Assembly (NCBI GenBank): GCA_963804165.1
Contig: CAWDPO010000037.1
Span: forward strand, 87,876-151,875
Reading direction: 5' to 3'
Length of the DNA stretch: 64,000 bases
From: an uncultured delta proteobacterium
GTDB lineage: Bacteria > Desulfobacterota > Binatia > UBA9968
The notes beneath the pieces were generated by a model. That model had not been told where the DNA came from. It saw nothing but the letters and a program-made list of their open reading frames with translations, and did no database searches. A program made the position numbers and the translations under genes. Of the stretch, positions 39,571 through 63,932 are shown in pieces (the first letter of the stretch is position 1; every line of letters begins with the position of its first letter).

Positions 39571-40182
39571 TCATAGATCCAAGTATGCGCGCTCCGCCTC
39601 TACAGCTTCCAACCAACGTCGCTTTCGCTCGACGGGCACGGCGAGCGGCTCAACTCGATCGCGATAGAACTGTACGCGTTCCTCTCGCGTCTTGAGCGGT
39701 GGCATCTCGATGACGACGCCGGTGCCGCCAAACTGCTTTCCCGCTTCGGCGTATCGCTTTCGCCTTTCAGAGGCGTCAAGCTTCAGCCAAACCTCCTCGC
39801 CCTGGAAACGCCATGGACCGTAGCCCGGCCTGAAAAAGAAGAATTCCGGTTCGGCAAAAACTTGCACGTCCTTAGTCGAATAGTCACGCTCGGCAACAAT
39901 AATCCGTCCGTCCTGATCGGCCAGGACCTCCGCGGAATCGTAAAACACGAAGGTCGGCCCGCGGTCGGGCCCAAGAAGTACTTTTGTCCACACCGCAAGC
40001 ACGACGACGTTGTTAACAGGCTGCTTGGATTCGGCGTCGACGATCTGCGCTTTCCACGGTCCGAGTGCTAGAGCGGGGCGAACGGCGGCCGCAAGACTCA
40101 GGGCCAAAAGGAGAGTGCCAAGCACCAAAACAAAAAATTGCTTCTGCGCTTTCCTCTTCACGCCTTGCACCTCACTACTCAC
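39571..40182 (-). CDS. Secreted hypothetical protein (carboxypeptidase-regulatory-like beta domain)
   Basis: Signal peptide, IVDAESKQPV..VVLAVW and FFRPGY motifs. Confidence 0.7.
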   Translation of the reverse strand: MSSEVQGVKRKAQKQFFVLVLGTLLLALSLAAAVRPALALGPWKAQIVDAESKQPVNNVVVLAVWTKVLLGPDRGPTFVFYDSAEVLADQDGRIIVAERDYSTKDVQVFAEPEFFFFRPGYGPWRFQGEEVWLKLDASERRKRYAEAGKQFGGTGVVIEMPPLKTREERVQFYRDRVEPLAVPVERKRRWLEAVEAERAYLDL

Positions 40183-40184
40183 GC

Positions 40185-41179
40185 CTAACGAATCACCCGA
40201 TCCGCCCGTACCAGCACATTCGGCGGAATCGTGAGTCCGATCTGTTTTGCTGTCTTGAGATTGATTACCAGCTCGAATTTCGTCGGCTGCTCTACCGGCA
40301 GGTCGGCAGGCTTGGCGCCTTTCAGGATTTTGTCCACGTAATAGGCTACGCGCCGGTAGCTGTCAGCGAGGTCCGCGCCGTAGTACATAAGACCGCCATC
40401 ATCGACATATTCTCTTCTGCCGTACACCGACGGCAACCGGCTCTTTGCCGCAAAGCCCACAATTCGTTTTTGGTTACTATTCATGAGCGCGCCCGTGGAC
40501 ACGTAGAGTCCATCCGGGCGCTCCTTACTCTGCGCAGCGAATACCCTCTCGAACTCGTCGGCAGCTCGAATTCCCCAAGGCAGAATGGTCAGCCTCAGCG
40601 CACGTGCCGCGGCGGGGAGAACCTTTTTCACCTCGAGTGCACTGGTCGGATTGGTCGGATCGTAGAGAGCCGCGACACGGGCAAGTTTCGGAACGGTTTC
40701 TTTGAGCAGCTCCAGCCGCTTCCCGCCTAGTTCTAAGACAAGGAGAGTGATGCCGGTGACGTTTCCTCCAGGGCGGGCAAGGCTCTCAACAAAGCCAGCC
40801 TCGACGGGATCAGCCCCACCGCCCGACATAACGATGGGTACTGTCTTGGTTGCATTCATGGCCTCCCGGACGGCCGGGTCTCCTCCTGCTACCACGATGA
40901 TATCAACCTTGGAGAGTGCTAGCTCGGCCGCGAGCTGCAGCGAACCGTTCGCGCTTTCCTTCCGCATATCGGTACTCGATGGCGATGTTCTGTCCTTCGA
41001 TGTAGCCAAGATCGTGCAGGCCACGCCGAATTGCCTCGGCAGCGGGGGGACTCAGAAGCTGGATCGCGCGTTGATAGATAACCTAACCGCGGGACTTTTT
41101 TCGGCTGCTGCGCCTGAGCGTGAAAGCAAAGCGCTAAGAGCAAAGTGCTAAGCGCAAGACCAAAGAATTTTCTTCTCAT
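40185..41179 (-). CDS. ABC_sub_bind SBP paralogue 1 (frameshifts at about 40950-41045)
   Basis: [45 protein letters not shown]. Confidence 0.85.
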
Positions 41180-41238
41180 GAACCTACTCCTGTGTTCTTG
41201 CCGCTCTTTGCTCCTTGCCCTTTGCTCCATGCTCCCTG

Positions 41239-42270
41239 CTATTTGATCACTTGATTCGCCCGCTCGAGCACGCGGACTGGAACTGTTAGACCGATCTGTT
41301 TCGCCGCCTTAAGGTTTATGATGAATTCAAACTTCGTTGCCTGCTGCACAGATAGGTCAGAGGGTTTCGTCCCCTTGAGGATCTTGTCAACATATTGGGC
41401 GCCTTTGCGGTATAGGTCATCGTATTCTGCCCCGTAGGACATGAGACCGCCTGCATCGACAAACTCTTCCTGGTAGTAAATCGCCGGCAATCGGTATTTG
41501 ACGGCAAGCTCCACGATCCGCTTTCTTTCGGCGAAAAAGGTTGTAGCGGTGGTCGTCATAATCGCGCCCACCTGCTTCTGCTTTGCGGTTTGAAAGGCAC
41601 TCTCTAAACCTTTGGCATCGCGTTGAGTCTCGATCTCCTCCAATTGTAGCTTCAATGCTAGCGCCGCAGCCCTGAGGTTTTTGAGTTGGCGGTCGGATCC
41701 TCCCGCGGGCCTCAGAAGAGCAACTCGGGCGAGCTTTGGGATCACATCTTTGAGTATCTCTAGCCTCTTGGTATTTAGCTCGGTGGCTAAGCCCGAAAAC
41801 CCTGTGACATTGCCTCCTGGCCGCGCCAAACTAGCAACCAACCCTGCAGCGACGGGGTCGCCAACGGTCACCATCACGATGGGGATGGTACTAGTGGCGC
41901 TTTTGGCCGCTAACGAAGATGGTGTATCTGCGACCAGGATCAGATCGACCTTAAGACGAACCAACTCCGCCGCAAACTCAGGGAGGCGCTTTGTGCCTTT
42001 GTTCTCCCCAAACCGGTATTCGATGGTTATGTTCTTTCCCTCGATCCACCCAAGCTTATTCAGCTCTTGCCGGAACGCCTCCAAGAGGACCGCGCTACCA
42101 GAAGCAGTGCTTGGATCCAGGAAACCTATGCGGAAGATTTTTCCCGGCTGCTGCGCGTCAGCGGACGAGCAAAGCGCTAAGAGCATGGCGCAAAGCGTGA
42201 AGCAGAAGATTTTCTTCTGCGCGGATCGCCCAATCGAAAATCCAAAATCTAAAATCGAAAATTGAATCAC
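41239..42270 (-). CDS. ABC_sub_bind SBP paralogue 2
   Basis: Intact ORF; N-terminus FSILDFGFSI is encoded by the heptamer repeat. Confidence 0.9.
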   Translation of the reverse strand: MIQFSILDFGFSIGRSAQKKIFCFTLCAMLLALCSSADAQQPGKIFRIGFLDPSTASGSAVLLEAFRQELNKLGWIEGKNITIEYRFGENKGTKRLPEFAAELVRLKVDLILVADTPSSLAAKSATSTIPIVMVTVGDPVAAGLVASLARPGGNVTGFSGLATELNTKRLEILKDVIPKLARVALLRPAGGSDRQLKNLRAAALALKLQLEEIETQRDAKGLESAFQTAKQKQVGAIMTTTATTFFAERKRIVELAVKYRLPAIYYQEEFVDAGGLMSYGAEYDDLYRKGAQYVDKILKGTKPSDLSVQQATKFEFIINLKAAKQIGLTVPVRVLERANQVIK

Positions 42271-43340
42271 TTGATCACCTTATCCGCCCGGTACAGCACC
42301 GACTGCGGGATCGTCAGGCCGATTTGCTTTGCTGTTTTGAGATTGATCACGAACTCGAACTTCGTCGGCCGCTCAACTGGCAGATCAGCAGCCTTGGCTC
42401 CCTTGACGAGTTTGTCCACGTAAACCGCGACGCGCCGGTAGATATCCGCGAGGTCGGCCCCGTAGTACATTAGTCCACCGGCGTCCACGCCATCTTTATC
42501 GCCATACAGTGATGGTAACCGGCTCTTTAACGCAAAACCTGCGACACGTTTTCCACTCGCGCGCATTAGCGCACCTGTAAGCGGGACATATAGTCCATCC
42601 GGACGTTCCATGTTTAGCGCCGCCAATGCTCTCTCCAAACCGTTCGCGTCTCGTATCTCCCAAGACCGAACCGTCATTCCCAGCGCACGCGCCGCAACTG
42701 GGAGATCCTCTTTGACCTCGCGTGCGGTGCCCGGAGTGTCTGCGTCGTAGAGCACTGCGACACGTTCAAGTTTAGTGACGGCTTCTTTGAACAGCTCCAG
42801 CCGTTTACCGCCTAGTTCTGTGGAAAGATATGTGAGGCCCGTGAGGTTGCCGCCGGGACGAGCAAGGCTTTCAATCAAACCTGCTTCGACAGGATCGGGC
42901 CCGGAACCCGTCATCACGATGGGAATCGTCCGGGTCGCTTTCATGGCCGCCCGGATCAACGACTCTCCTCCGGTCACAACGATCATGTCAACCTTGAGAC
43001 GCACTAGTTCGGCTGCGAGCTCAGGTTATCGATCGCGCTTCCCCTCCGCGTATCGGTATTCGATCGCGATGTTCTGTCGTTCTATGTAGCCAAGCTCGCG
43101 CAGAGCCTGCCGAATTACCTCGGCACGGCTGGACTCACGAGCTGCATCGAGCGGCGATAGATAGCCTAGCCGCGGGACTTTCTTTGGCTGTTGCGCCTCG
43201 ACCACAACCCCGCACACCACGATTACGAAAGCCATTACCGAAAGCCCCAGCCATTTTAGATTTTCGTCTACGGGGCCGCTTTTGGATTTTAAATTGTCAG
43301 AGAACGATTTCAGAACTCGGGGCCGGGACTTTTCATTCAT
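42267..43340 (-). CDS. ABC_sub_bind SBP paralogue 3 (frameshift at about 43025)
   Basis: ORFs 43026-43340 and 42267-43004 join into one SBP. Confidence 0.85.
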
Positions 43341-43373
43341 GCGTTTTCTCTCCCATCAATCCAAGATCCAAAA

Positions 43374-43446
43374 CCTGTGGTGAACCCTTCGACGGAGTTT
43401 ATCCTGAGCACAGCCGAAGGACTGAAGATAGACTGTGTCGAACCAT
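43374..43446. repeat. Nested REP-like elements (CTTCGAC/GTCGAA..CTGAGC family) within a heptamer arm
   Basis: CCTGTGGTGAAC[CCTTCGAC[..TCCTGAGCACAGCCGAAGGA]CTGAAGATAG]..GTGTCGAACCA lies between AAAA and TCCAAAAT. Confidence 0.6.
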
Positions 43447-43452
43447 CCAAAA

Positions 43453-44612
43453 TTATTGCGCGTGGCTTCGTTGCTTCCTTGTTACCGTAGCGATTAATTC
43501 CGACAAACCGACAAACCTCACAGACAGGCCGCCGTAAGATCTGGTGAAAGAGCGCTGAACGTCATTGGCAACCACGAGGTTGTCGCCCTGTGGGTATGAT
43601 CTCCTGAACGCCTGTAGGTTGCCGGCGTCGAAGTCAGACGCAGACCACTTGCATTCGATTGCCAACGACAATGGTTTGGTGCGAGCCAAGATGAAATCGA
43701 CCTCGTGGCCGCGCTTGTCACGCCAGTAGCGGATCTCGCGAGATTGCAAATACGCGTGCATTTCATTGAGAACCAGATGCTCCCACAACAACCCTAGATC
43801 GTCGCTTCTAAGCTCGTGCCACCCCCGGTGGTAGCAGACAAACCCGGTATCGAAACCGTAAACTTTCGGAGCGGATATGATCTCGGTCGGGCGATGTGAG
43901 CTGTAGGGGCGGATCACATGCGCGATAAAGGTCGCCTCCAGCACTGCGAGATAGTTGGAGATCGTAGTTCGACTGACTTCGCAGGGGCGCGTAAACTTCG
44001 TCGCCTCGAAAATCCCGCCGCTCTGCGCCATGAGAAGTTCGGCAAACTTCTGAAACGAGCGACGGCGTTCGAGACGGAAAAGCTCTTGGATGTCCTTCGC
44101 CCAGTAAGCGTCCATCCATTCCTGGAAATCTCTTTCCGGAAGCTCTTTTCAAGAAAGAACGGCGGAAGACCGCCGTGCAGCAAACGATGACGAAGATCGA
44201 CACTACCGAAATCTTTAAGATCGCCGGTGGTCATCGGGGTAAGCCACAGTTCTTCTTTGCGTCCGGCTAAGGTGTCGCGAAATCTGGCTGAGGCGCCGAG
44301 AGTCGAGGAGCCAGTCGCGAGAATCTGGGTATCGGGGAAATGGTCTGCGGCAATTTTCAAAATCTCCGACGGCTGCTCAAGTCGATGAATCTCATCTAAA
44401 ATGATCCTGCGGCCACGGTTGTCTTGGAGGAATCCTTCGGGGTCGTCGATAATGCGGCGCACGCGCGGAAGCTCGCAGTCGAAATATTCGATATCACGGA
44501 GACTCTTCGCTAGGAAAGTTTTGCCAGCTCGTCGAACCCCGGATAGCCAGACTACGGAGCGCCGCTTCCATGCGCCTTCCAACCGATCGATCCAAAAGTG
44601 TCTTTGAACCAT
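43453..44612 (-). CDS. AAA_14 ATPase + DUF4143/PD-(D/E)XK-like C-terminus (frameshift at about 44140)
   Basis: GVRRAGKT, ILDEIH, TGSS, LAGR, GGLP, KVYGFDTG and EVDF..IECK motifs. Confidence 0.88.
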
Positions 44613-44632
44613 GGGACGGCACGCTAGCTTAT

Positions 44633-44672
44633 AGTCGCACTATACGCAATACTACTTGCGTTTAGTACAACT
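44633..44672. promoter_or_regulatory. Imperfect palindrome (operator-like) upstream of the AAA_14 gene
   Basis: AGTCGCACTATACGCAA-N6-TTGCGTTTAGTACAACT, 14/17 complementary. Confidence 0.5.
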
Positions 44673-44772
44673 CCGAGAGTTGCTTGGTCACTTTATCCGT
44701 GCGCATTCCGATATCAGCTTTACGAAACACAATCCTTACATCACGACTCAGGACAGGATTCGGATCGCTCGG

Positions 44773-45757
44773 TCATCGGATGACTCGATCCGCTCTCGCC
44801 AGCACATTGGGCGGAATCGTCAGGCCGATCTGCTTCGCTGCTTGAGATTGATCACCAGCTCGAACTTGGTCGGTTGCTCCACGGGCAAGTCCGCGGGCTT
44901 TGTGCCTTTCAGAATCTTGTCCACGTATGTAGCCGCGCGGCGGTACAAGTCCGACATCGTTCGCCCCATAGGACATAAGCCCCCCGCCTTCCACATATGT
45001 CGGAAGAAGTATATCACCGGGAGCCGGCTGTTTACCGCGAAGTCCGCAATCTTTTTTCGGTGAGGATTCCCAATGGAGTCCGTTACGAACCAGAGTGCTC
45101 CGTCCGCCCGCTCCCTAACTGCGGCTCGGAATGCGGTCTCAATATCTTTAGGACTTAGCATGTCTAGGTATTGAAGCTGCACCCCGAACGCCCCTGCGGC
45201 AAGTTCCACTTCTCTTAACATTTGCGCGTTTCCCGGCCTGGTTGAATCCCGAGAACGGCGACACGGGAGAGCTTGGGGACGATTTCTTTCAGAAGCTCCA
45301 GCTGCTTTCCGCCTAGCTCCGGAGCAAGTCTGGACAACCCAGTAATGTTCCCACCAGGTCGCGCCAGGCTGGCAACGAATCCGTTGCCGACCGGATCGGG
45401 ATCCTGCGCCATGACAATGGGAATCGTCGAAGTTGCTTCCTTGGCAGCACGTGTTACTAGTGGACCGGCCGTGACGATCACGTCTACCTTGAGACGAACT
45501 AGGTCCGCCGCGAGCGCGGGGAGACGATCGCGTTTTCCCTCTGCAGATCGCCACTCTATCACAATATTTTTACCCTCCACGTACCCCAGATCGCGTAGAC
45601 CCTGCCGGAATGCTTCGGTGTTGGCCTTGATACTCGAAGGCGGGCTACCAGATAGGAATCCTATCCGAGGGACTTTCTTCGGCTGCTGCGCCTGGGCGGG
45701 AAAGCTAAGAGCCAAGAGCACAGCGGTTAGAGCAAAACCAATGATTTTTTTACACAT
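44773..45757 (-). CDS. ABC_sub_bind SBP paralogue 4 (about 3 frameshifts)
   Basis: Pieces 45215-45757, 44820-45554 and 44773-44994 carry consecutive SBP motifs. Confidence 0.83.
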
Positions 45758-45837
45758 TGTTCTTTTCGGAGCAGGATCAAAACTTTACCAATGACTATCT
45801 TTAATACTTTACCATTCACATGTTCACCGATCACTGT

Positions 45838-46815
45838 TCACTTTATGACCTTATCCGCCCGCACCAGCACATTCGGCGGAATCGCCAAGCCGATCCGCTT
45901 CGCGGTTTTCAGATTTATGATGAACTCAAACTTAGTCGGCTGTTCGACGGGCAGCTCGGCGGGCTTTGTGCCTTTCAAGATTTTGTCGACAAAAACGGCT
46001 ACGCGCTTGTAACGTTCGGTGCGGTCGGCTCCATAGGACATCAAACCGCCGCTGACAACGAAACTTCCCTGGACGTAAATCGCCGGCAGCCGATTTTTTG
46101 CCGCCAGCTCGACAATCCGTTCTTGATTCGACGCCGCTAACGGAGTCGAGCACGCGGCAAGAGCAGCGCTGCTCGCTTTTACCGCCTCTTTGAACGCGTT
46201 CTCATATCTGTCGGCACTGCGCACCGCCATGGAATGAAGCTGTAGCCCAAGGTTCAGGGCTGCGGTCTGCGTCTCTTTCCATTCCTGCGCGGAGCTTGGA
46301 TTCTGCGGATCCCACAGGACCGCAACACGAAGCAGTTTCGGAACGGTTTCCCTGAGCAGCTCCAGCCGTTTGCCCGCCAACGCCGTTTCGACGCTGGTGA
46401 ACCCCGTGATGTTTCCGCCGGGCCGCGCCAAGCTGTCAACCAGCCCCGTCGCAACCGGGTCGGTCACGTCTGTGAAAACGATGGGAATAGTCTGAGTGGC
46501 TTTTTTTAGAGCCAGGGCGCCGGGAGTTCCGGGCGTTACCAGTACGTCAACCTTGAGACGAACCAGCTCCTCGGCTAGGGAGGGAAGCCGGTCGAGCTTG
46601 TCATCCGCGAATCGATATTCGAAGGCTATGTTCTTGCCTTCAACGTAGCCAAGATCGCGGAGCATACTGACGATAGTCTCTTGGCCGATGTTTGAAGCGC
46701 GGCGGGCTGAGAGCCAGCCGATCTTCGATACCTTCGTTTGCTGCTGCGCCTGGGCGGAAACAAAAGTTATCAGCAAGACAGTTGCCAGTAACCAGAAAAG
46801 AGATTTTGACTTCAT
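45838..46815 (-). CDS. ABC_sub_bind SBP paralogue 5
   Basis: Intact 325 aa. Confidence 0.92.
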   Translation of the reverse strand: MKSKSLFWLLATVLLITFVSAQAQQQTKVSKIGWLSARRASNIGQETIVSMLRDLGYVEGKNIAFEYRFADDKLDRLPSLAEELVRLKVDVLVTPGTPGALALKKATQTIPIVFTDVTDPVATGLVDSLARPGGNITGFTSVETALAGKRLELLRETVPKLLRVAVLWDPQNPSSAQEWKETQTAALNLGLQLHSMAVRSADRYENAFKEAVKASSAALAACSTPLAASNQERIVELAAKNRLPAIYVQGSFVVSGGLMSYGADRTERYKRVAVFVDKILKGTKPAELPVEQPTKFEFIINLKTAKRIGLAIPPNVLVRADKVIK

Positions 46816-47416
46816 AGTCTTCCCACCTGTTTCTTACTGGTAACTGATCACTGACAACCGGCAACTGTCATTTGATTACCTGATTCGCTCGCTCGAGCAC
46901 GCGGACTGGAATTGTAATACCGATCTGTTTTGCCGCCTTAAGGTTTATGATGAATTCAAACTTCGTGGCCCGCTGCACCGGCAAATCAGCCGGTTTGGCG
47001 CCTTTCAAGATCTTGTCCACGTAAACAGCCGCACGCCGATAGAGGTCATCGAAGTCCGGCCCATAGGACATCAGGCCGCCCTCATCGACGAACTCCTTCT
47101 GGAAGTAAATGGCCGGCAAACGGTATCTGCCGGCAAGCTCGACGATCCGCGTTCTTTCGGCGAAAAATTGGCGGACAACGATCGCCATAATCGCGTTGAC
47201 CTGCTTCTGCTTTGCGGTTTGAAAGGCACTCTCTAAACCTTTGGCGTCTGGTTGAGTCTCGATCTCCTCCAACTTTAGCTTCAGTGCCACAGCCGCGGGC
47301 CTGATCTCTTTAAGTTGGATGTCCCCTTCTATGTTGGCTCCCGGCAGCCGCAGAAGTCCAACGCGGGCGAGCTTGGGGACTGCGTCCTTGAGTATCTCTA
47401 GCCTTTTGGTGTTTAA

Positions 47417-48603
47417 GGAACCTCTGAATAACTACGTTATTTGGAAGGGGGCGATTATTTAAAACTGTTTCATGTTGACTAAGCGGCTCGGTGATTACAT
47501 CGGATGGGGTTTGCCTCGATTTCTTGGCCACTCAATGCGTTTGTGGACGGCCCAAGCTCCTCCCCATCGGACTACGCCAACAAAGCACGGCGCACTCGAT
47601 ACAGATTGGCCAGCGCAAACAGCGTGTAGATCTGTGCCGCGTTTTTCTTCAATCCCCGATACCGGGTCTTGATGTAGCCGAACTGGCGCTTGACCACCCG
47701 AAACGGATGCTCCACCTTGGCCCGTATACTGGACAGTTTTCTGTTTCTGCGCCGCTGCTTATGGCTCAAGCTCTTTTTGCTCTTGGCCTTGTCCAACACG
47801 CCCCAGAATAGTCCCGTCTTTCTCGCTGAGCGCTTATCCTGGTCGCTGAAGTAACCCTTGTCGGCAAACACCGCTTGCTCTTCTCCATGAAGGAGCGCTT
47901 CCATCTCCTGCTTGTCATGCACACTGGCCGTGGTCACTTTGACCGTGTGCACCAAACCGCTCTGACTGTCCGTTCCCGTGTGCACCTTCATGCCGAAGTG
48001 GTAGTTGTTGCCCTTCTTGGTCGAACTCATCTCCCCGTCGCGTTTCTTGTCCTTGTTCTTGGTCGAGGACGGCGCACCGATCAGCGTGGCGTCTACGATC
48101 GTGCCTTGTCTGAGCAAAAGCCTTTTCTCGCTCAAATACCCGTTGACCTCTTCCAACAGCTTCTCGGTTAACTGGTGCTTTTCCAGTAAGTGGCGAAAGT
48201 TTAAAATCGTGGTCTCATCGGGAATTTCTTCTTCCCCCAACTCTATCCCGGCAAATCGCCGCACCGACTCGATGTCGTACAACGCTTCTTCCATCCCGGG
48301 ATCGGACAACCCGTACCACTGCTGCACAAAGTATATCCGTAGCATCCGTTCCAACGGCATCGGTCGCCGTCCACTGCCGGCTTTGGGATAGTGCGCTTCG
48401 ATCAACGCCAGCAATTTCTCCCACGGCACCACTTGATCCATCTCAGACAAAAACTTCTCTCGCTTGGTCTGCTTTTTCTTTCCCGCCCACGCTAAACTCG
48501 CAAACGTTGTCTGCTCCTTCAATCTGTTTCCTCCTCTACCATTGTCGGTCTTGCTGCTTTTCGATATTAGACGACATTACTGAAGGGCTTGTTCAGAGAT
48601 TCC
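47417..48603 (-). mobile_element. IS5-family insertion sequence (1187 bp) with TTAA target duplication
   Basis: TIRs GGAACCTCTGAATAA / GGAATCTCTGAACAA; TTAA at 47413-47416 and 48604-48607. Confidence 0.95.
47572..48522 (-). CDS. IS5-family DDE transposase
   Basis: IPDETTILNFRHLLE, IVDATLI, ADKGY and RAKVEHPF motifs. Confidence 0.96.
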   Translation of the reverse strand: MKEQTTFASLAWAGKKKQTKREKFLSEMDQVVPWEKLLALIEAHYPKAGSGRRPMPLERMLRIYFVQQWYGLSDPGMEEALYDIESVRRFAGIELGEEEIPDETTILNFRHLLEKHQLTEKLLEEVNGYLSEKRLLLRQGTIVDATLIGAPSSTKNKDKKRDGEMSSTKKGNNYHFGMKVHTGTDSQSGLVHTVKVTTASVHDKQEMEALLHGEEQAVFADKGYFSDQDKRSARKTGLFWGVLDKAKSKKSLSHKQRRRNRKLSSIRAKVEHPFRVVKRQFGYIKTRYRGLKKNAAQIYTLFALANLYRVRRALLA

Positions 48604-49189
48604 TTAACTCGGGTGCTAAACCTGAAAACCCGGTTATGTTACCTCCCGGCCGCGCCAGACTGGCAACCAAACCAACTCCCACGGGATCCCCAGCGTTTGC
48701 CATCACGATGGGGATGGGCATGGTAGTGGTGGCGCCCTTGGCCGCTGACGCCGGTTGTGCCCCTGAGACCAGAATTAGATCAACCTTACGAACCAACTCC
48801 GCTGCAAGCTCAGGTAAGCGGTCATTTTTCCCTTCGGCAAATCGATACTCGATGGTGATATTCCTTCCCTCAATCCATCCGAGCTTGCGCAGCTCTTGCC
48901 GGAACGTCTCCAACAGACCTGCCATACCGGAAGCAGTGCTTGAATCGAGGAAACCGATGCGGAAGATTTTTCCCGGCTGCTGCGCCTCGGCCCTCGCCCC
49001 GCACACCGTGAGCGCGACAAAGATAGCAAAGATCCCCGCCCATTTTGGATTTTGGATACTTCGACGTGGCTCAGTACAGGTTTTAGATTTTCGATTGTCG
49101 GAACAAGAGCTCAGAGTTTGGACCCAAGACTTTTCACTCATGCGGTTTCTCCCCAATGCAAAATCCAAAATCAAAAATCCAAAATTGCT

Positions 49190-53002: not shown

Positions 53003-53057
53003 ATGTGGTCTCTCATTTCTTGCACTTGCCTCTTTGCCCTATGCGCTTTGCGATTTT

Positions 53058-54134: not shown

Positions 54135-54340
54135 CTAGTGTCCTGTCTCAGAAGTTCGCGACATAATTCTCGCGTCATTCCGTCGGAAAATCTCCCCTTC
54201 CCCTCTTTGGCAAAGAGGGGTGAGAATCGCACGGAGAAAATTCCCCCTTTGAAAAAGGGGGACAAAGGGGGATTTGAGTTCAATTTCAGTGGCTGCCATC
54301 GTTTGGACTTTTTAAACGAACTTCTGAGACGCCACACTAG
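54135..54340. mobile_element. MITE (about 200 bp) with 24-bp TIRs including flanking CTAG, carrying REP-like palindromes
   Basis: CTAGTGTCCTGTCTCAGAAGTTCG ... CGAACTTCTGAGACGCCACACTAG; internal CCCCTCTTTGGCAAAGAGGGG and CCCCCTTTGAAAAAGGGGG. Confidence 0.8.
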
Positions 54341-54361
54341 AAACCTGAAACTCGAAACTTT

Positions 54362-55420: not shown

Positions 55421-55464
55421 GATTTTCTCCCCTAATCGAAAATCCTAAAATCGAAAATCTAAAA

Positions 55465-56517
55465 TTACTTGATCTACTCCGATCCGCTCTGGCCAGCACG
55501 TTCGGTGGAATGGTTAATCCGATCTGTTTCGCCGTTTTGAGATTGATGATGAACTCGAACTTCTTCGGCTGTTCGACGGGAAGATCGGCGGGCTTGGTGC
55601 CCTTCAAGAATCTTGTCGACATAGGTGGCGGCGCGTCGGTCCAAGTCAGAAATGCTCACGCCGTAGCTCATGAGCCCGCCGTCTTCCACAAATTCCCGCC
55701 TGGGGTATGTCACCGGGAGCCGGCTCTTTAGCGCGAGGTCTGCAATCTGTGCTCGCTGAGCATTGAAAACGGGACTCTGCAGCACAAGGAATGCGTCAGC
55801 GCGCTCCTTGCCTGCGGCTCGGAATGCAGTCTCAATATCCTGGGGGTTTTCTATATTTAGGTATTGAACCTTCATCGCGAACGCCCCCGCGACGAGTTCT
55901 ATCTCTTTTAAAGCTTGTGCGGTGCCCTGTCTGGTCGAAGTCCCGATGACAGCCACTCGGTTAAGCCGGGGAACAATTTCTTTGAGAAGCTCCAATTGTT
56001 TTCCGCTTATCTCCGGGGCCAGAGTCGACAATCCGGTAACGTTTCCGCCGGGTCGCGCGAGACTGACGACGAAGCCGCTGCCGACCGGGTCATCATCAAA
56101 CGTCATGACAATCGGAATCGTAGAAGTTGCTCCTTTAGCGGGACGAGTTGCTGATGGACCACTGGTGACGATGACGTCAACATTGAGCCGCACCAACTCG
56201 GCTGCGAGCGCGGGGAGCCGATCGAGTTTTCCCTCTGCATGTCGCCGCTCAATGAGGATATTTTTCCCCTCCACGTACCCGAGTTCTCGCAGACCCTGCT
56301 GGAATGCATCCATGCGCGGTGCAATTACCGCAGGTGAGGAAGTGATGAGAAATCCTATGCGGGGAATTTTCCCCTGCTGCTGCGCCTGAGCCGCGGTCCC
56401 AACCGCCACGAGCACGAAAGCGATGACCGAAAGCCGCAGCCATTTTGGATTTTGGATTGCCGATTTTGGATTATCGGATCGAAACCAAGTGAGTTCGCTT
56501 TGAAATGTCTTAATCAT
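55465..56517 (-). CDS. ABC_sub_bind SBP paralogue 12 (frameshifts near the C-terminus)
   Basis: ORF 55474-56538 plus a shifted tail 55413-55622. Confidence 0.85.
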
Positions 56518-56561
56518 ATCTTGGGACCCCAAATCCAAAATCTAAAATCGAAAATCCACAA

Positions 56562-57548
56562 TTACTTGACAACCCTATCTCCTCTCGCCAGCACGTTCGG
56601 TAGAATCGTCAGACCGATCTGTTTGGCGGCTTTTAGATTGATGATGAGCTCGAATTTCCTCGGCTGCTCCACCGGAAGGTCGGCGGGCTTCGCGCCTTTC
56701 AATATCTTGTCCACGTAAGTAGCGGCGCGCCGGTCTAAGTCCTCGATGTTCACGCCGTAGGTCATAAGCCCGCCGGCCTCCACAAAGTCTGCCCTGTGGT
56801 ACATCGCAGGGAGGCGGTTCTTTGCCGCGAGTTCTGCAATCTCGGTCTGGTGATCAGCGGCAACGCGGCCCGGCAACAGCATAAGGACCGCGTCAGCACG
56901 CCCCTTGGTTGCAGCTCGGAACGCGGGCTCAATATCCTTGGGACTTAGGACGTCTAGGTATTGAAGCTTCACTCCGAACGCCTTGGCGACGAGCTCCACT
57001 TCTTTTAACGATTGTGCGTTACCCGGCTGGGTTGAAGTCCCGAACACTGCCACACGAGAGAGTTTGGGCACAATCTCCTTCAGAAGCTCCAACCGTTTTC
57101 CGCTCAGCTCCGGGGCAAGGGTCGACAATCCAGTAATGTTCCCGCCAGGTCGGGCAAGGCTGGCGACGAACCCGCTCCCCACGGGATCGGCGTCCTGCGT
57201 CATGACAGTAGGAATCGTACCGGTCGCTTGCTTGGCAGCCCTCGTATCAGGCGGGCCGGCCGTGACAATGACGTCCACGTTAAGACGAACCAGCTCAGCC
57301 GCGAGCGCGGGGAGGCGATCGAGTTTTCCCTCTGCATATCGCCATTCAATGATAATGTTTTTCCCCTCGACGTATCCAAGCTCGCGCAGTCCCTGCCGGA
57401 ACGCCTCGATGCGGCCTGGGCTAGCGGAAGGGGAGGTTGCAATTAGGTGTCCTATCCGTGGGACTTTTGTCGGCTGCTGCGCCTCGGCGGGTGGGGCAGT
57501 TGTCAGAAGGATAGTTGCCAGTAACCCGATGAGAAGTTTTGCCGCCAT
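56562..57548 (-). CDS. ABC_sub_bind SBP paralogue 13
   Basis: Intact 328 aa. Confidence 0.92.
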   Translation of the reverse strand: MAAKLLIGLLATILLTTAPPAEAQQPTKVPRIGHLIATSPSASPGRIEAFRQGLRELGYVEGKNIIIEWRYAEGKLDRLPALAAELVRLNVDVIVTAGPPDTRAAKQATGTIPTVMTQDADPVGSGFVASLARPGGNITGLSTLAPELSGKRLELLKEIVPKLSRVAVFGTSTQPGNAQSLKEVELVAKAFGVKLQYLDVLSPKDIEPAFRAATKGRADAVLMLLPGRVAADHQTEIAELAAKNRLPAMYHRADFVEAGGLMTYGVNIEDLDRRAATYVDKILKGAKPADLPVEQPRKFELIINLKAAKQIGLTILPNVLARGDRVVK

Positions 57549-57589
57549 GAATCTGTTCCTACTGTTGCCTGTTGCCTCGTGCCTACCGC

Positions 57590-58577
57590 CTACTGTCGCA
57601 TCGCCTCTTCTACATAGGTGTTATCGAATGATTGGCGCACATCGAACTGCTTGGCTTTCGGATGTTCGACGAACTTGAGCGCATTGGTCATCGCTTTCTC
57701 GATGACTCTAAGCGAACTCGGGAAGGCGTCCTTGTAGAATTCGAAGCTGCCTTGCAGCAACGCGTCATCGTCGGTTCGGGTAAATTTTCGCAGCGCGCGC
57801 TTGGTTGCCGCGGCATTTTCCCTGGCAAGCTGTTGTCCTTCATTGAGCGCGCGTAGAAACTCGACCGCGACCTTGCGATTCTTGGGGTCCTTGAGCCAGG
57901 ACTCGCGCGCTCCGATGACGGCGGTGGGAAAGAGGCCGTATTCGGTCTGCAAAGGCCGGAACAGCAGATTAAATCCCGCGTTCTTGGCGCTGAGCCCGAA
58001 AGGATACCCGATCATGCAGACATCGACACGGCCGCCGACGAGGGCGGCGTAGGATTCGCCAACGCCGCCATTTTGGATGAACGTGACTTCGGTTGGCTTC
58101 ACCCCGCCCGACTCCAACATCGACAGCGCCGAGAAGTAGCTCGATGCGCCGAAGCGCGTGACCCCGATTCTCTTGCCTCTGACATCGCTGATGGATTTGA
58201 TTTCGGGCTTCGACCAACCATCGATTGTGAGGACGGGCAAGGGCGAGGCGATGGCGATCAAGTCACTGCCGCTGAGTCGGCTGGCGATGATCGCGCCGCC
58301 GCCGGTGTAGCCGATGGGAAATTCTCCGGCGAGGATCGCCGAGTTGATCAGCGGCGAGCCGCCCATGAATACGGGGAAAATATCGTAGCCGTGTTTCTGA
58401 AAAATTTTCTCTTCCACGGCGATGTACAGCGGGATCGCCGCGCCCCCGATGGGCGTGTAGCCGACGGTGAGCTTTTGCAAGTCCTTTTGCGCCGCTTGTG
58501 CGCCGACGCTTAGACAACGATGCCGTTACCAGGAAGGTTGCAAACCACCAACGTGGATCTCTCGCTTTCATGGTCAT
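57590..58577 (-). CDS. NitT/TauT (NMT1/SsuA-like) substrate-binding protein (frameshift in leader at about 58500)
   Basis: PLYIAVEEKIFQKHG, DVRGKRIGVTRFG and FDNTYV motifs; the signal peptide is in the 58263-58577 frame. Confidence 0.85.
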
Positions 58578-58688
58578 CCTCCCGTCCTAAAATTTTGGAT
58601 TTGCGGACGAAGATTTCGAACGAAATAGCTTCATAGAGTCGGGTCTCCTGGCTTTCAATCCAAAATCTAAAATCGAGAATCTAAAATA

Positions 58689-59677
58689 TCATCTGATGAC
58701 TTTGTCCGCTCTGGCCAGCACGTTCGGCGGGATCGTGAGACCGATCTGCTTGGCTGTCTTCAGATTGATCACGAATTCAAACTTGGTCGGTGCTCGATGG
58801 TTAGGTCGGCCGGCTTCGTACCCTTAAGTATTCTGTCTACGTAGTATGCGGCGCGTCTGAAACTCTCAGTATCGTAGTCTGAATACGATATTAGACCGCC
58901 GGCCTCTACAAAATCACTGCTCTCGTTCATTGATGGCAGTCGACTCTTTATGGCAAGGTCTGCAATTCGCCGCATGTTTCGAGTGAGTACGGAACTTCTA
59001 ATCGGAATGATCGCACCGGCACGCTCCTTAGCCGCGGTGTGAAATGCGCGTTCGAAATCAAGGTTCAGGGCCCGTAGCTCCAGGGACTGAAGATTTATCT
59101 TTAGCAAGCGAGCAGTAGCCTCATACTCTTTAAAAGCAATAGTCGGCCCTGGCCCGTTCCCATCCCAGAGGACTCCGACGCGAGATACTTTCGGAACCAC
59201 CTCCTTGAGCAGTTCCAGTCGTTTTCCGATTAGGTCGCGGGTGAGTCTGGTGAGCGCCGTGATATTTCCCCCAGGTCGCGCCAGGCTATCGATGAGCCCA
59301 GTCGCGACCGGATCCTGAACTGTCACCATGACAACAGGAATCGTCTTGGTCGCTTGCTTGGCTGCGAGGATCCCTCCTGTAGCTTGGGAGACAAGGATAT
59401 CTACCTTGAGTTGCACCAGTTCGGTCACAAGGCTTGGGATACGGTCCGGCTTTCCTTCAGCAGAGCGAAACTCAATCACGATGTTTTTCCCCTCAACATA
59501 ACCGAGATTCCGCAACCCCTGCCGGAATGCCTCAAGGTTCGGTGAGGGAGAAGAGAGATCGCCAGTTACTGTTACGTATCCTATCCGCGGAGCTTTCGTT
59601 GGCTGTTGCGCCTCGACAGAAAAGCAGAGCGCAAAGAGCATGGCGCAAAGAGTAAGGGCCGTGATTTTTTTCTTCAT
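58689..59677 (-). CDS. ABC_sub_bind SBP paralogue 14 (frameshift at about 58790)
   Basis: ORF 58769-59677 plus a tail ending ADKVIR at TGA 58689. Confidence 0.86.
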
Positions 59678-59724
59678 GTCTTTTTTCTGTCTCGATTGAC
59701 TTGCGACGTGACACTAACCCCGTC

Positions 59725-60798
59725 TCACTTGATCACCTTATCCGCCCGGTACAGCACGTTCGGCGGAACTGTCAGGCGGATCTGCTTGGCCGCCTTAAGG
59801 TTGATCACGAGCTCGAACTTTATCGGTGCTTCCACCGGCAGGTCAGCCGGCTTCGTGCCCCTTAGGATCTTGTCAACGTACGTCGCGGCCCGCCTGTGCA
59901 TGCCCGAGTAGCTTGGCCCATAGGACATCAAGCCACCCGCCTCGACCAACTCCACATAAGCATGCACGCCTGGTAAGTGGTTTTGGGTGGCGAAGTCCAT
60001 GATGCGCACGCGGTGGTGCAGGAACAGTCGGTCTGCTAACACGAGGAGCGCACCTGGTCGTTCTCTGAGAATTGTCGCAAATGCATTGTCGAACTGCTCC
60101 TCGGCTTGCACCCCCAGCGACAGCACTTTTATTTTCATTGCATGAGCAGCCGCCTGTGTCTCCTTTTCCCCCGCCACCTGCAAGGGGCTGGTGGGATTCC
60201 AGAGCACCGCAACGTGCGAGATTTTAGGGACCACTTCCCTGAGCAACTCCAACCGCTTCCCGTCTAGCTCCGGTGAGATCGAGGTCAACCCGGTGAGGTT
60301 TCCACCAGGGTGGGCGAGACTCGCGATGAGGCCCGACCCCACGGGGTCCCCGACGGCGATCATGACAAGGGGCAGCGTCGTTGTCGCCTGCTTGAGAGCG
60401 ATCGTGGCGGGTGTGCCGGCGGTAACGATCAGTTCGACCTTCGAGGCGATCAGCTCCGCGATGAGGGCAGGAAAGCGCTCGTACTTTCCTTCCGCCCATC
60501 GCCACTCAATGACGATGTTTTTACCCTCGACATAGCCAACGTCATGCAACCCTTCGCGAAAGGGCCCGATCAGATTTGCCTCCAGGGCAGCGGTAGAGTT
60601 TCCCAGGAAACCGATCCGGGGGACCTTCCCTTTCTGCTGCGCCTCAGCCGTTCCCACACACCCCACGAGCAGGACGAGGATTAGAAGAAACCCCACCCAT
60701 TTTAGATTTTGGATACTTCGACTCAGCTCAGTACAGGTTTTAGATTTCCGATTATCAGAGCGAGAATTTGGAGATCGCATCCAGGTTTTCTCATACAT
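59725..60798 (-). CDS. ABC_sub_bind SBP paralogue 15
   Basis: Intact; N-terminus NRKSKTCTELSRSIQNLK derives from heptamer + REP sequence. Confidence 0.92.
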   Translation of the reverse strand: MYEKTWMRSPNSRSDNRKSKTCTELSRSIQNLKWVGFLLILVLLVGCVGTAEAQQKGKVPRIGFLGNSTAALEANLIGPFREGLHDVGYVEGKNIVIEWRWAEGKYERFPALIAELIASKVELIVTAGTPATIALKQATTTLPLVMIAVGDPVGSGLIASLAHPGGNLTGLTSISPELDGKRLELLREVVPKISHVAVLWNPTSPLQVAGEKETQAAAHAMKIKVLSLGVQAEEQFDNAFATILRERPGALLVLADRLFLHHRVRIMDFATQNHLPGVHAYVELVEAGGLMSYGPSYSGMHRRAATYVDKILRGTKPADLPVEAPIKFELVINLKAAKQIRLTVPPNVLYRADKVIK

Positions 60799-60844
60799 TT
60801 GTTTTTCTCCTCAATCTAAAATCGGCAATCGAAAATCTAAAATA

Positions 60845-61827
60845 TCATCTGATGACTTTGTCCGCTCTGGCCAGCACATTCGGCGGAATCGTCAGTCCGA
60901 TCTGCTTGGCGGTTTTGAGATTGATGATCAGGTCGAATTTTACGGGCCGCTCGACAGGCAGATCGGCCGGCTTGGTACCCTTGAGGATTTTATCGACAAA
61001 GGTCGCGGCGCGCCTATACATATCCGCATCATTTGGTCCGTAAACCATCAGGCCGCCGGCTTCGGCAAATGGAATTTGCCCATGGATTGTTGCGAAGCGG
61101 TTCTTGATGGCGAGGTCTGCCACTCGCGTTCGGTGCGTGAAAGTGACCGGATCACCGATAGTCATGAGGGCTCCGACGCTGTTCTTTTTTGCTGCCTGAA
61201 ATATATTGTCTAGATCGTTGGGTCCACGTATTTCCAAAACTTGAATTTTTAACGCTAGCGACTGCGCCGCAAGTTCGGCATCTTTCAATGCGTCCGCGGT
61301 GCCCAACATGCCGGGGTTGCGAAGAACCGCGACGCGGGAGAGCTTGGGAATCGCTTCTTTGAGCAGCTCCAGACGTTTGCCATTTAACTCTTCGGCGTTG
61401 GAAGTGAGGCCCGTAATGTTGCCCCCTGGCCGGGCCAAACTTGCGACCAACCCGGTTCGAACTGGGTCGGCTTCATACGCGAGAACAATGGGAATTGTTC
61501 CAGCAGCTTCTTTTGCTGGACGCGTCGCAAGGGGACCTCCCGTAACGATGACATCGACTCTGAGCCGAGCCAGTTCTTTGGCGAATTCACGAAGTCGGTC
61601 GAGGTTGTCTTCAGCATAGCGATACTCTACGAGGATGTTTTGGCCTTCAGTGTAGCCTTGCTCGCGCAAACCTTGCCGAAACGCTTCGACTCGACCTAAC
61701 ATGGAAGCGGCCGAACCCACTGACAGAAAACCTATTCGTGGAACTTTTTTTTGCTGCTGCGCCTCAATGCAAAGCAAAGCGCCAAGAGCACAGCGTTGAG
61801 AGTCAACCCAAAGATCTTTTTCTTCAT
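60845..61827 (-). CDS. ABC_sub_bind SBP paralogue 16 (frameshift in signal peptide at about 61770)
   Basis: MKKKIFGLTL leader joins ORF 60845-61777. Confidence 0.86.
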
Positions 61828-61864
61828 CCTTTTTCTCTCACGCCTTCCGCCTCACTCATCACGC

Positions 61865-62931
61865 CTATCGAATCACCCTATCCGCTCGCGCCAGCACATT
61901 CGGCGGGATCGTGAGGCCGATCTGTTTGGCCGTTTTTAGGTTGATGACGAACTCAAACTTTGTCGGTTGTTCCACCGGGAGATCGGCGGGCTTGGTGCCT
62001 TTGAGAATCTTGTCGACATAAATTGCGGCGCGCCCATCCAAGTCGGGCAAGTGGACGCCGTAGACATAAGCCCTCCGTCTTCGACATTTTCTCGCCTGCT
62101 GTACAGCGCCGTAAGACATCAAGCCCCCGCGCTCGACAAAGTCTTCGCGAAAGTGGATCGCCGGCAAGTGGTACTTGGCCGCCAGCTCAGCGATCTGTTT
62201 TTGATAGTTAGTGAATAACCGATGGCGCGACACAGCGAGCGCCGCACTACGGGCTTTAATGGCCCCTTTAAAAGCACTCTCATACTGGTCGATGGTGCTT
62301 ACCTCCATGGAGTGAAGTTGCAGCCCCAGTTGCCGCGCCGCAAGCTGGCTTTCTTTCCATTGTGGCTGGTTGTCAGAAGAACTTGGGTTCCACAAAACAG
62401 CGACGTGAGAGAGTTTGGGTATGGATTCCTTGAGTACTTGCAGCCGTTTGCCAGCTAGAACATCGGCCATCGAATAAAATCCCGTAATGTTGCCTACGGG
62501 CCGAGCGAGGCTGTCCACCAAGCCTCGCGCCACCGGATCGGAGTTGGAATCCGTGAAAACGATGGGGATCGTTTTGGTTCCTTCTTAGCGGTCATAGCAT
62601 CGTTTGGACCGTCCGCAATAATGAGATCGACCTTGAGACGAACCAGCTCATCTGCCAGAGCGGAGAGCCGCTCGGGTTTCTCCTCTGCGTTGCGAAGCTC
62701 GAAGACGATGTTTTTAGATGTATCCGAGCTCGCGAAGCTCTCGTCGAAGTGTGTCTACGTTGAATCTGGAACTAGATAAAGCGCCGGACAATCTTCCGAC
62801 GCGATAAACTTTCCGGGCTGCTGTGCATCGGCGGAAACGCGGAGCGCAAACAGCAGGGCGCAAAGTACGAAGCCAGAAAGTTTGATTCTCTTACTGTTGC
62901 CTGTTGCCTCGTGGCTAATGCCGCTGATCAC
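61865..62931 (-). pseudogene. ABC_sub_bind SBP paralogue 17, multiply frameshifted and chimeric
   Basis: GTG-coupled leader MISGISHEATGNSKRIKLSGFVLCALLFAL; duplicated GGLMSYG segment. Confidence 0.75.
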
Positions 62932-63932
62932 TTGATCACCCGATCCGCCCGGTACAGCACCGATTGCGGAATCATCAGGCCGATCTGCTTGGCGGTCTTG
63001 AGGTTAATGACGAATTCAAACGTCGTCGGCTGTTCTACCGGCAGGTCACCGGGCTTGGCCCCTTTGAGGATTTTGTCGACGAAGACAGCAACGCGGCGCG
63101 CTCAGTATAGCTGATTAGGCCCGTATAACATCAAGCCGCCTCCTTCCGGAAATTTCCTTCGTCCGACATGGTCGGCAGGCGGTTTTTTAGCGCGAGATCC
63201 GCGATCTTTTCCCTGTCCGAGATTGCTAATAAAGAGTGGCTCAATAATAAGCGCCCCGGCTCGCTCTTTGGTCATGGCCGAACGCGCTTTCAATCTCGTC
63301 GACAGCGGTTATTACCAACGGCTGAAATTTCATTCCCAATCTTTCAGCTGCCTGTTGCGCTTCCTTGACAAAGAGCTTGTGCGCCGGATCCGGTGCGTAG
63401 GCCAGGAAGGCCACGCGTGAAAGCTTAAAAAGAATCCTCTCAGCAGTTCCAATCTCTTGCCCGCCAACTCCGGCATGATGTTGGTCACGCCGGTCATATT
63501 CCGCCCGGTCGAGCCAAGTTGGTGACAAATCCGCTCCCTACCGCGTCTGCAACTCCGAACATCACGATCGGGATGGTCGTCGTCGCATTTTTAGCGGCCT
63601 GCGCCGCAGGGGTGGCTCTTGCGACGATGAGTTCCGGTTTCAGCCGCACTAGCTCTTCCGCCAATTCAGGCAGGCGTTCTACCTTGCCGGCCGCAAATCG
63701 GTAATCGATAGTGATGTTCTGCCCGTCGATGTAACCCAGGTCTCGCAAGCCCTGCCGGAAAGCCTGCTCGGGAGCCAAACGGCCGACAAGAAGCAAGAAA
63801 ACCGATCCGCGGGATTTTCTTCGTGTCCTGCGCGTTGGCGAGGACGATCAGCGCGAAGGGTAGGATGCAGGACAGAATACAGTAGTAGAGACTCTTTCTA
63901 ACTTTTGAACGCTGTCTACTGACTTCTTTCAT
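62928..63932 (-). pseudogene. ABC_sub_bind SBP paralogue 18, multiply frameshifted
   Basis: Fragments 63666-63995, 63494-63796, 63241-63528 and 63102-63293 carry successive SBP motifs. Confidence 0.78.

Follow-up and report, generated by a model that had tools for sequence, protein, structure and literature searches.

What lies between the genes of a very large receptor family, and does it have an effect there, be it by RNA structure or as an unstructured spacer? The question is raised by a 64,000-nucleotide stretch of DNA from an uncultured delta proteobacterium of a soil-bacterium lineage (contig C37, positions 87876-151875; hereafter the window), whose genome, G000, comprises 7.5 Mb in 46 contigs with about 56% G+C. 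The minus strand of the window carries a tandem array of about 19 paralogous genes for transporter substrate-binding proteins (SBPs), each of about 328 codons and ending in ...RAD(R/K)VI(R/K)*, and the three SBPs tested belong to PF04392 (ABC_sub_bind; E-values of 4e-52 to 3e-47). A tblastn search with one window SBP returned 224 high-scoring segment pairs and 135 distinct C-terminal stop codons in G000, clustered on six contigs. An earlier note on this DNA had proposed that most of these genes begin at a repeat with a 7-bp period, often forming a hairpin whose loop holds the ribosome-binding site and start codon and whose 3′ arm encodes the signal peptide. The junction repeats are a lineage-wide class of short (4-5 unit), degenerate heptamer arrays, often in inverted pairs and concentrated at SBP junctions. 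Their anatomy, enrichment, strand specificity and spread across genomes, as well as the family-level matching of their arms, are matters of direct observation.

Within the window, 14 of the 19 SBP stops are followed, no more than 58 nucleotides (nt) downstream, by an array of 4-5 degenerate heptamers with at least 14 of 21 matches at lag 7, and at nine of the 19 a complementary array lies 40-110 nt downstream as well, within signal-peptide or N-terminal-extension codons. Tandem Repeats Finder (TRF) reported 22 period-7 rows in the window, 17 of them within 40000-63000. The intervals in which the earlier note had placed 7-bp repeats at most window junctions show a lag-7 identity of 0.36-0.75 against a background of 0.25, and so the claim stands. 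The same signal was recovered from the 45 nt past the 135 SBP stops of the genome, where identity reached 0.451 at lag 7 and 0.399 at lag 14 (other lags, 0.24-0.29). It was recovered again from 271 SBP stops in 79 related loci, taken from metagenome-assembled genomes labelled Candidatus Binatia, delta proteobacterium or Syntrophobacteraceae and from a few bins labelled as other phyla (lag 7, 0.446; lag 14, 0.383; other lags, about 0.26). The unit families were unchanged there, and the claim of at least six families with 7-nt periodicity kept holds across many genomes.

When the own-genome and related-locus stops were pooled and redundancy was removed at 85% identity, 234 tandem SBP junctions were left. 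At least 14 of 21 lag-7 matches occurred in the first 55 nt past the stop at 51% of these junctions and in the signal-peptide part at 29%, versus 0% of mature-coding control windows. The lag-7 identity likewise fell from the 5′ region (0.457) through the signal-peptide region (0.348) to the mature region (0.226), with the 7/14 periodicity being specific to region. Stops that are not followed by an SBP gene carried arrays in only 22% of 147 cases. As for phylogenetic reach, the GATTTTN x3 pattern was found in 22 of 24 same-genus genomes (21 of 23 without the unpublished G005), in 2 of 5 genomes of one further family of the order and 0 of 11 of another and, as a reversed-pattern control, in 0 genomes.

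The arrays are clearly oriented. At SBP junctions 96 arrays lie in the sense orientation and 7 in the complement, and the bias holds in families that have no paired arm (GGCA, 16:0; GGCGT, 10:0). The first 40 nt past an SBP stop are rich in purines and poor in C (G 31%, A 33%, C 16%, T 20%). The arrays fill the untranslated spacer from the SBP stop to the next Shine-Dalgarno sequence (SD), almost always in this purine-rich, C-poor orientation. They are also capped in size, since among 524 period-7 TRF rows the mode was 4-4.5 copies (131 rows), the 95th percentile 4.9 and the maximum 6.6.

This size distribution bears on one conceivable role for repeats that sit in the leader-peptide codons of a large paralogue family, namely that of contingency loci, in which slipped-strand gain or loss of 7 nt would switch individual SBP genes on and off. 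A change of one unit would indeed shift the reading frame, because seven is not a multiple of three. The arrays, however, are degenerate and short, exact runs of at least three units number only 6 in 7.5 Mb, and the copies on C37 and C38, which are 96% identical, differ by many 1-nt indels and show no 7-nt indels in their arrays. Phase variation is therefore unlikely, and such switching is an extremely improbable explanation of the arrays. A G-quadruplex reading was also considered and is overall unsupported by the tract counts: four GGG tracts occurred in none of the 234 junctions, and four GG tracts were not enriched (44 of 234 junctions versus 30 of 227 coding controls). GGCA is the sole family in which most arrays (13 of 16) hold four GG tracts.

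The reading tentatively favoured, at a little under an even chance, is that the arrays act in cis on the mRNA. It is favoured because of their strand specificity, their size cap, their placement from stop to SD and their conservation across genomes. Unpaired arrays would serve as an unstructured, C-poor spacer or standby region. At about one-quarter to one-third of junctions a pyrimidine-rich complementary array lies in the leader codons, giving an interrupted stem of 18-33 bp with the SD and start codon in the loop, and here the paired arrays may form a stem-loop by which the next cistron's processing, stability and initiation of translation are set. By analogy with the repeat hairpin of hmw1A (discussed below), this stem-loop could possibly be a substrate of RNase III. 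The arrays themselves would turn over by replacement and recombination rather than by base-by-base compensation.

How real is the pairing? Arms from the same junction paired more strongly in RNAduplex than mismatched arms did (-29.7 versus -27.2 kcal/mol; p=1.6e-5), a permutation test of arm pairing in the own genome alone gave a z of -6.4, and an ungapped complementarity score of at least 10 was reached by 29.5% of own pairs and 7.1% of mismatched pairs. At the 69 paired junctions, a set that includes a few short palindromes (e.g., of 10 nt) that are not heptamer arms, the 5′ arm begins a median of 6 nt past the stop, the arms are about 18 nt long (up to 33) and the loop has a median of 57 nt. 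A predicted start codon lies between the arms at 44 of the 69, so that the placement of the start in the loop is borne out for these. The peptide sequence alone does not explain the complementarity, because the real arm score (8.14) exceeds that obtained by synonymous resampling with mature-region (6.70) or signal-peptide (6.84) codon usage. Pairing beat the resampled sequences at p<=0.05 in 25% and 20%, respectively, of 180 junctions (Wilcoxon about 1e-10), and the codon-preserving control that the earlier note had put forward is thus exceeded.

Of course, a hairpin is a minority feature of SBP junctions. A fold z below -2 was obtained for 23 of 117 junctions and for 3 of 90 coding controls. 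When 16 window junctions were folded as RNA, each against 200 dinucleotide shuffles, six had a z of -2.46 or lower, with 0-5 of the 200 shuffles folding equally well (stops 41239, 46868, 50230, 53058, 55474 and 56562); four were marginal (z -1.0 to -1.9), and six showed nothing (z -0.65 to +1.9). The proposal of a hairpin at the junctions therefore survives for part of them, with partner arms at nine of the 19 window stops, and is not general: the GGCA and GGCGT families have no partner.

Matching of the arms follows the repeat family. Complementary 3′ arms accompany 9 of the 22 junctions with a GATTTT 5′ array (odds ratio 10.6, p=2.5e-5), 8 of the 11 with a GCAAAG array (odds ratio 10.5, p=4e-4) and 2 of the 3 with an ACTGAG array (p=1e-3), and none of the 14 GGCA or 7 GGCGT junctions has a partner arm. 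These classes were assigned by strict motif thresholds (at least three listed hexamers or pentamers) that leave many arrays unclassified, e.g., 132 of 216 in the flanking-protein comparison given below; the 3′ arms of the CAGT family escape the motif rule (0 of 26), though individual CAGT hairpins are clear. Seventeen GATTTT-type junctions align as a conserved module of 150-185 nt, in which the array is followed by the SD, the ATG, a stretch of about 15 variable codons and finally the complementary array; a 31-nt insert is optional. In RNAalifold the conserved GAUUUU and AAAAUC cores of the module are paired and the variable seventh positions unpaired, giving 24 pairs with 390 of 406 cells paired. 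The paired fraction of 0.961 compares with 0.955 after column shuffling, and 40 of 500 shuffles reached the observed value. No syntenic junction match above 88% identity was found outside G000. The earlier suggestion that the arms co-vary applies at the level of the repeat family (GATTTT, GCAAAG and ACTGAG), with no position-specific covariation found.

What the 3′ arm encodes also depends on the family. In the GCAAAGN family it does encode the core of the signal peptide, as had been suggested, whereas in the GATTTTN family it encodes a hydrophilic N-terminal extension (..SDNRKSK..IQNPKW) that precedes the hydrophobic core. The further suggestion that several leaders are ATGA- or GTGA-coupled and read through the repeat comes out at chance level, with such open reading frames (ORFs) found in the gene frame at 36 of 103 junctions versus 27 and 26 of 103 in the other frames.

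Several results weigh against a cis role on the mRNA and are best taken together. About half of the tandem junctions have no array and about 70% have no partner arm, and the mean fold z of junctions did not differ significantly from that of the coding control (p=0.16). The difference between sense and antisense pairing energy was equal for own and mismatched arms (p=0.32), so that there is no G-U signature of selection on the transcript, and no asymmetry in pairing between the strands was found beyond base composition. Within a family, an arm pairs with its own partner no better than with the arm of another junction (17.8 versus 19.2 and 12.9 versus 13.8), and the paired columns of the GATTTT module are invariant over its 17 sequences, with no covariation. 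No link was found between the family of an array and how similar its flanking proteins are (0.433 for the same and 0.441 for different families upstream; 0.433 and 0.431 downstream). Similar arrays fill all intergenic contexts, and SBP context is therefore not needed for them. Finally, in 44 pairs of own-genome junctions at least one 300-nt flanking block is 85% or more identical, with similarity on just one side in nearly every pair, and identity across the junction itself is 0.3-0.6. Mobile or recombining DNA would account for this decoupling of family and these breaks in homology just as well as selection would.

The genome-wide distribution of the arrays gives some substance to an explanation without any function, in which selfish or neutral repeat DNA spreads by slippage, template switching or insertion and is tolerated in spacers and signal-peptide codons. 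Strict arrays (at least 16 of 21 matches) number 232 in G000, and the first 12 contigs hold 96 of them versus 5 in a Markov simulation. On a crude longest-ORF gene map, which underlies both the SBP-adjacency and the intergenic-context counts, 58 of the 232 have an SBP gene within 300 nt, and the other 174 mostly belong to a GTTCAAN family that is absent from SBP junctions. An inverted partner within 200 nt was found for 76 of the 174 non-SBP arrays (44%) and 25 of the 58 SBP-associated ones (101 of 232 in total; control, 2 of 227), with inverted partners occurring alike in tandem, convergent and divergent intergenic regions. Such a spread through all kinds of intergenic region is what neutral or selfish repeats would give, and complementarity that exists at the family level only, the lack of G-U asymmetry and the decoupling of junction type from flanking-gene phylogeny point the same way. 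At 13 of 388 junctions, moreover, a replacement C-terminal tail richer in AT (..LARADKVIR*) is separated by a heptamer element from a duplicate of the original tail, as if the heptamer insertion had brought its own gene end, and an insert resembling a transposable element of the miniature inverted-repeat kind (MITE) as well as an optional 31-nt insert are nested within arrays. For all this, a 96:7 strand bias would be unexpected of neutral insertions, at least in the unpaired GGCA and GGCGT families, and so would the tight size cap, the precise position from stop to SD and the recurrence of the same families in many genomes; nor is there a link to Y1 transposases of the REP-associated tyrosine transposase (RAYT) kind (REP, repetitive extragenic palindromic). 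On balance, an explanation without function is considered unlikely, though with an appreciable chance of being right.

The possible RAYT link was examined in G000, which has 18 matches to PF01797 (Y1 transposase), unusually many, most of them in ORFs of about 320 aa. Only two of the 18 had an array within 1.2 kb, versus 62 of 300 random windows, and the link was rejected, the PF01797 matches not being associated with arrays. Examples of the tail duplication are found in G000 at C12:62989, C5:12333 and C38:16718 and in a related locus at L061:4725, where the inverted pair is complete. The largest array family of the genome, with about 90 strict arrays, consists of GTTCAAN/NTTGAAC inverted pairs that are intergenic and unrelated to SBP genes (e.g., C1:178818-178889, C2:195570-195640 and C3:20143-20227).

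Another way that the arrays could conceivably operate is at the DNA level, as recombination sites that, together with the conserved tail codons, mark the boundaries of cassettes for SBP duplication, replacement and shuffling. The one-sided similarity of nearly all the 44 junction pairs, with their dissimilar junctions, would be expected on this account, as would the duplicated tails that flank inserted elements. A gene copy common to C37 and C6 and 100% identical between them starts inside a GATTTTN array and ends in the RAD tail codons, and beyond the NMT1-like gene a different array family takes over in the C37 and C38 copies. Elsewhere, however, the copies have their boundaries at conserved stretches of coding sequence (PRIGFL and the tail among them), which is the outcome to be expected of ordinary gene conversion among paralogues; only one boundary was mapped inside an array, and arrays are also found away from any gene family. 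A role as recombination sites is on these grounds improbable.

A quite improbable further alternative is that the arrays are binding sites for a trans-acting factor, whether small RNAs or an RNA-binding protein of 7-nt register, that would co-regulate the SBP paralogues. Strand specificity, the position beside the SD and the fixed size of 4-5 units would all suit a binding site, and S1-, Csp- or CsrA-like binders are proposed for the TAACTGA repeats of other bacteria by MacGregor (2015; PMC4679880). At least six unrelated units, on the other hand, would demand several binders or very loose specificity, and no candidate factor was identified in this analysis.

Bacterial genomes harbor several other kinds of short repeat with which the arrays can be compared. 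The short tandemly repeated repetitive (STRR) sequences of cyanobacteria comprise several tandem heptamer families in the intergenic DNA of one lineage, a feature that the SBP-junction arrays share; STRR arrays can be long, and they are not known to be linked to signal-peptide codons. REP sequences, with their composite forms, the bacterial interspersed mosaic elements (BIMEs) and REPINs, are abundant intergenic inverted repeats that often lie past stops, have proposed roles in mRNA stability and occur with RAYT transposases. Unlike REPs, which are single GC-rich palindromes, the SBP-junction elements are heptamer arrays and are not associated with Y1 genes. The opa CTCTT and hmw ATCTTTC tracts are long, near-perfect, phase-variable contingency repeats, in contrast to the SBP arrays, which have neither a long near-perfect tract nor, between C37 and C38, any variation in unit number. 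The attC sites of integrons are imperfect palindromes located 3′ of promoterless cassettes and occur with an integron integrase; the arms at SBP junctions differ from this anatomy in that they straddle the start of the next gene.

Closer likenesses are found among published heptamers. As described by Rehm et al. (2015; PMC4692102), the GGGNATC and GGGGA(C/T)T heptamers of Xanthomonas and Nostoc prefer four units, those of the GGGNATC type occur between co-oriented ORFs, on the coding strand and 0-50 bp past the stop, and Xanthomonas has 70-75 inverted pairs; the pattern, with tracts of G3-4, is attributed there to G-quadruplexes. The SBP-junction arrays share the heptamer unit, the preference for about four units, the post-stop placement, the coding-strand orientation and the frequent inverted pairs, and they differ in lacking four GGG tracts, in having many unit families, in their strong tie to one gene family and in having an arm inside coding sequence. 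The TAACTGA direct repeats of marine Beggiatoaceae, cyanobacteria and Bacteroidetes, as described by MacGregor (PMC4679880), occur in 2-6 copies just upstream of start codons, where translational control through the binders mentioned above is proposed. Here too heptamers adjoin the start codons of many genes, and the CAGTTAY unit is the reverse complement of a TAACTGA-like unit. The TAACTGA system as set out there (PMC4679880) has a single unit and only one inverted set, however, and its repeats overlap the ribosome-binding sites of unrelated genes, whereas the SBP-junction units fall into many families, are oppositely oriented, have inverted partners and are tied to SBP genes, with CAGTTAY being one of at least six families.

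A further comparison is with Haemophilus influenzae hmw1A, in which, according to Rapun-Araiz et al. (PMC12721329), the (ATCTTTC)n tract is one arm of a 5′-untranslated-region hairpin that is processed by RNase III. In both cases a heptamer array serves as an arm of a long imperfect hairpin upstream of a gene for a secreted protein. The hmw1A hairpin is described there as acting in cis on the mRNA (PMC12721329), and a cis role is what we infer for the SBP arrays. A stable repeat hairpin of this type is predicted at a subset of junctions only, i.e., at the 6 of 16 window junctions and 23 of 117 junctions noted above. The hmw1A tract (PMC12721329) has at least 10 near-perfect, phase-variable units and a right arm that is G-rich and not a repeat, in contrast to SBP junctions, where 4-5 degenerate units are found, both arms are arrays and there is no sign of variation in unit number. 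In kind, the SBP-junction arrays belong with the heptamers of Xanthomonas and Nostoc, the STRR sequences and the TAACTGA repeats. A literature search, with supplementary files outside its scope, found no description of these repeats in Binatia-like genomes or in arrays of PF04392 genes.

The individual junctions can be followed along the window from its highest coordinates downward, with all arrays and arms lying on the minus strand and counts of 21 being lag-7 matches. After the stop at 62928, a GGCAACA-type array (62888-62924; 15/21) has no complementary arm (best arm score 8.5, non-heptamer; fold z +1.27), and a GGCGTGA-type array at 61835-61864 (stop 61865; 14/21) likewise has no heptamer partner (z -1.29). 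A GATTTTN array at 60808-60844 (stop 60845; 15/21) is followed by SD and ATG, and its NAAAATC arm at 60699-60714, recognized in the module alignment, lies in the N-terminal extension of a 357-aa SBP ORF (59725-60798; arm score 13.5, z -1.86). The GATTTTN array at 58652-58688 (stop 58689; 16/21; z -1.01) has a short partner at 58592-58601 (arm score 10), upstream of the SD of the NMT1-like SBP gene. That gene (PF09084; 57590-58480, minus strand) is interspersed among the PF04392 genes, and its stop at 57590 is followed by a GGCAACA-type array (57555-57589; 16/21) that lies upstream of the SBP gene 56562-57548 and is unpaired (arm score 5.5, z +1.29). Two well-paired GATTTTN junctions come next: 56520-56561 (stop 56562; 18/21) with an NAAAATC arm at 56443-56472 in N-terminal-extension codons (arm score 17.5; z -4.32, 0/200 shuffles), and 55430-55469 (stop 55474; 15/21) with an arm at 55339-55363 (arm score 17.5; z -2.46).

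At the stop at 54362, a GTTTCNA array (54329-54361) is interrupted by an insert of about 190 nt. The earlier note had read a GAAACYN repeat over 54128-54358, a span in which lag-7 identity is only 0.27 overall; what is really there is this short array, split by the insert. GCAAAGN arrays follow at 53020-53057 (stop 53058; 15/21) and 50189-50229 (stop 50230; 16/21). The NCTTTGC arm of the first (52956-52975; arm score 15, z -4.00) encodes the hydrophobic core of the signal peptide, and that of the second (50120-50152; z -2.97) encodes the signal-peptide core as well, with the ATG at 50173 in a 38-nt loop. The arms reported earlier at this second junction (50191-50223 and 50120-50152) proved exact in every respect, including 25 Watson-Crick and 2 G-U pairs of 33. 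Between these two junctions, an NAAAATC array (51220-51262; lag-7 identity 0.61) lies just 5′ of the SD and ATG of the SBP gene 50230-51213, with no SBP gene upstream.

The GATTTTN array at 49147-49189 (stop 49190; 18/21) has an NAAAATC arm at 49042-49057 in the N-terminal extension, an inner arm with the optional 31-nt insert before it (score 13.5), and its fold is not significant (z -0.65). A CAGTNNY array at 46826-46867 (stop 46868; 15/21) is matched by a complementary arm in the signal-peptide coding region at 46779-46791 (z -3.64), and the 12 of 13 matches previously claimed for 46834-46846 against it are likewise exact. After the stop at 42267, a GATTTTN array (42225-42266; 18/21; arm score 8, z -0.30) faces a signal peptide of CTTTGCG type, such that the array families are mismatched and there is no hairpin. 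The last junction, at stop 41239, joins a GGAGCAA/GCAAAGN array (41196-41238; 16/21) to a complementary arm in the signal-peptide coding region at 41125-41148 (score 14; z -5.60). The intervals that had been listed for the AAAATCC family do contain repeats, and they are wide enough to take in non-repeat loops.

The insert in the GTTTCNA array (54147-54328, minus strand) has terminal inverted repeats at 54317-54328 and 54147-54158, formed by CTCAGAAGTTCG and its complement and reaching a length of about 21 nt. Two GC-rich palindromes, CCCCCTTTTTCAAAGGGGG and CCCCTCTTTGCCAAAGAGGGG, lie within the insert, which has the look of a MITE that is nested in the junction. The 31-nt insert, ACCTGTACTGAGC-N4-GTCGAAG(T/G), occurs inside the 3′ arm of the GATTTT module at 49060-49095 and 60720-60755 and also at junctions on C16, C38, C6, L006 and L031, with its reverse complement being found inside some 5′ arrays (C38_5620, C30_64649), and appears to be a second small repeat element. 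In a separate SBP subfamily, a non-heptamer inverted repeat, AGGATTGAAYTGAATTCTCC ... CGTTCAGTTCAATCCT, replaces the heptamer arrays after the stop; it was found on C5, C12, C14, C18, C21, C23, C41 and C43 of G000 and in several related loci.

An insertion sequence (IS)-type DDE transposase (47572-48522) and an AAA_14 ATPase gene are also interspersed within the SBP array. Several of the window SBP genes are interrupted by single-base frame shifts (40185-45760, 54362-56538), several of which fall at homopolymer runs, and these split genes could be either pseudogenes or the result of assembly indel errors. Away from the SBP junctions, a GATTTTN array (36457-36493) and an NAAAATC array (35982-36023), both on the minus strand, bracket about 440 nt directly downstream of a GAF/HAMP histidine-kinase gene; the bracketed segment may hold a small gene remnant, and the gene that follows it was read by eye as a response regulator. 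Scans of 44000-63900 showed no excess of promoter-like sites (8 versus 9.1 expected) or of terminator-like ones (24 versus 24.7 expected). The sole Rfam 15 match over the 64 kb was a chance hit to mir-493 outside the region (32 bits against a gathering score of 68).

A bolder form of the cis-acting reading is that the arrays are modular, strand-specific punctuation for huge receptor families, with the complementary arm repeatedly co-opted as coding sequence. Each junction would then be a processing and translation gate, e.g., an RNase III site whose loop carries the SD and AUG, by which more than 100 SBP genes would be tuned individually. Moreover, the pyrimidine-rich strand would encode peptides rich in Leu, Phe, Cys and Ala, and palindromic repeats would thereby have seeded or rebuilt signal peptides and N-terminal extensions. 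Extended this far, the proposal is speculative and rather improbable.

Heptamer arrays near stops or starts have been reported in Xanthomonas, cyanobacteria, Beggiatoaceae and Haemophilus, with a role established only for hmw1A. What is distinctive here is the presence of several unit families, the association with a family of more than 100 paralogues and the embedding of an arm in signal-peptide codons. Junctions of this kind, some having a partner arm and some not, are replicated naturally by the hundred in this lineage, a single genome contributing about 135. Three questions become directly testable because so many replicate junctions of several families, paired and unpaired, are available: whether arrays of this type have any effect and, if so, whether it comes from RNA structure or from serving as an unstructured spacer; by what route repeats enter coding N-termini and remodel them; and how huge orphan SBP families are expressed and reshuffled. 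Even if the arrays were neutral, the case would still document the reach of repeat turnover in shaping signal-peptide codons.

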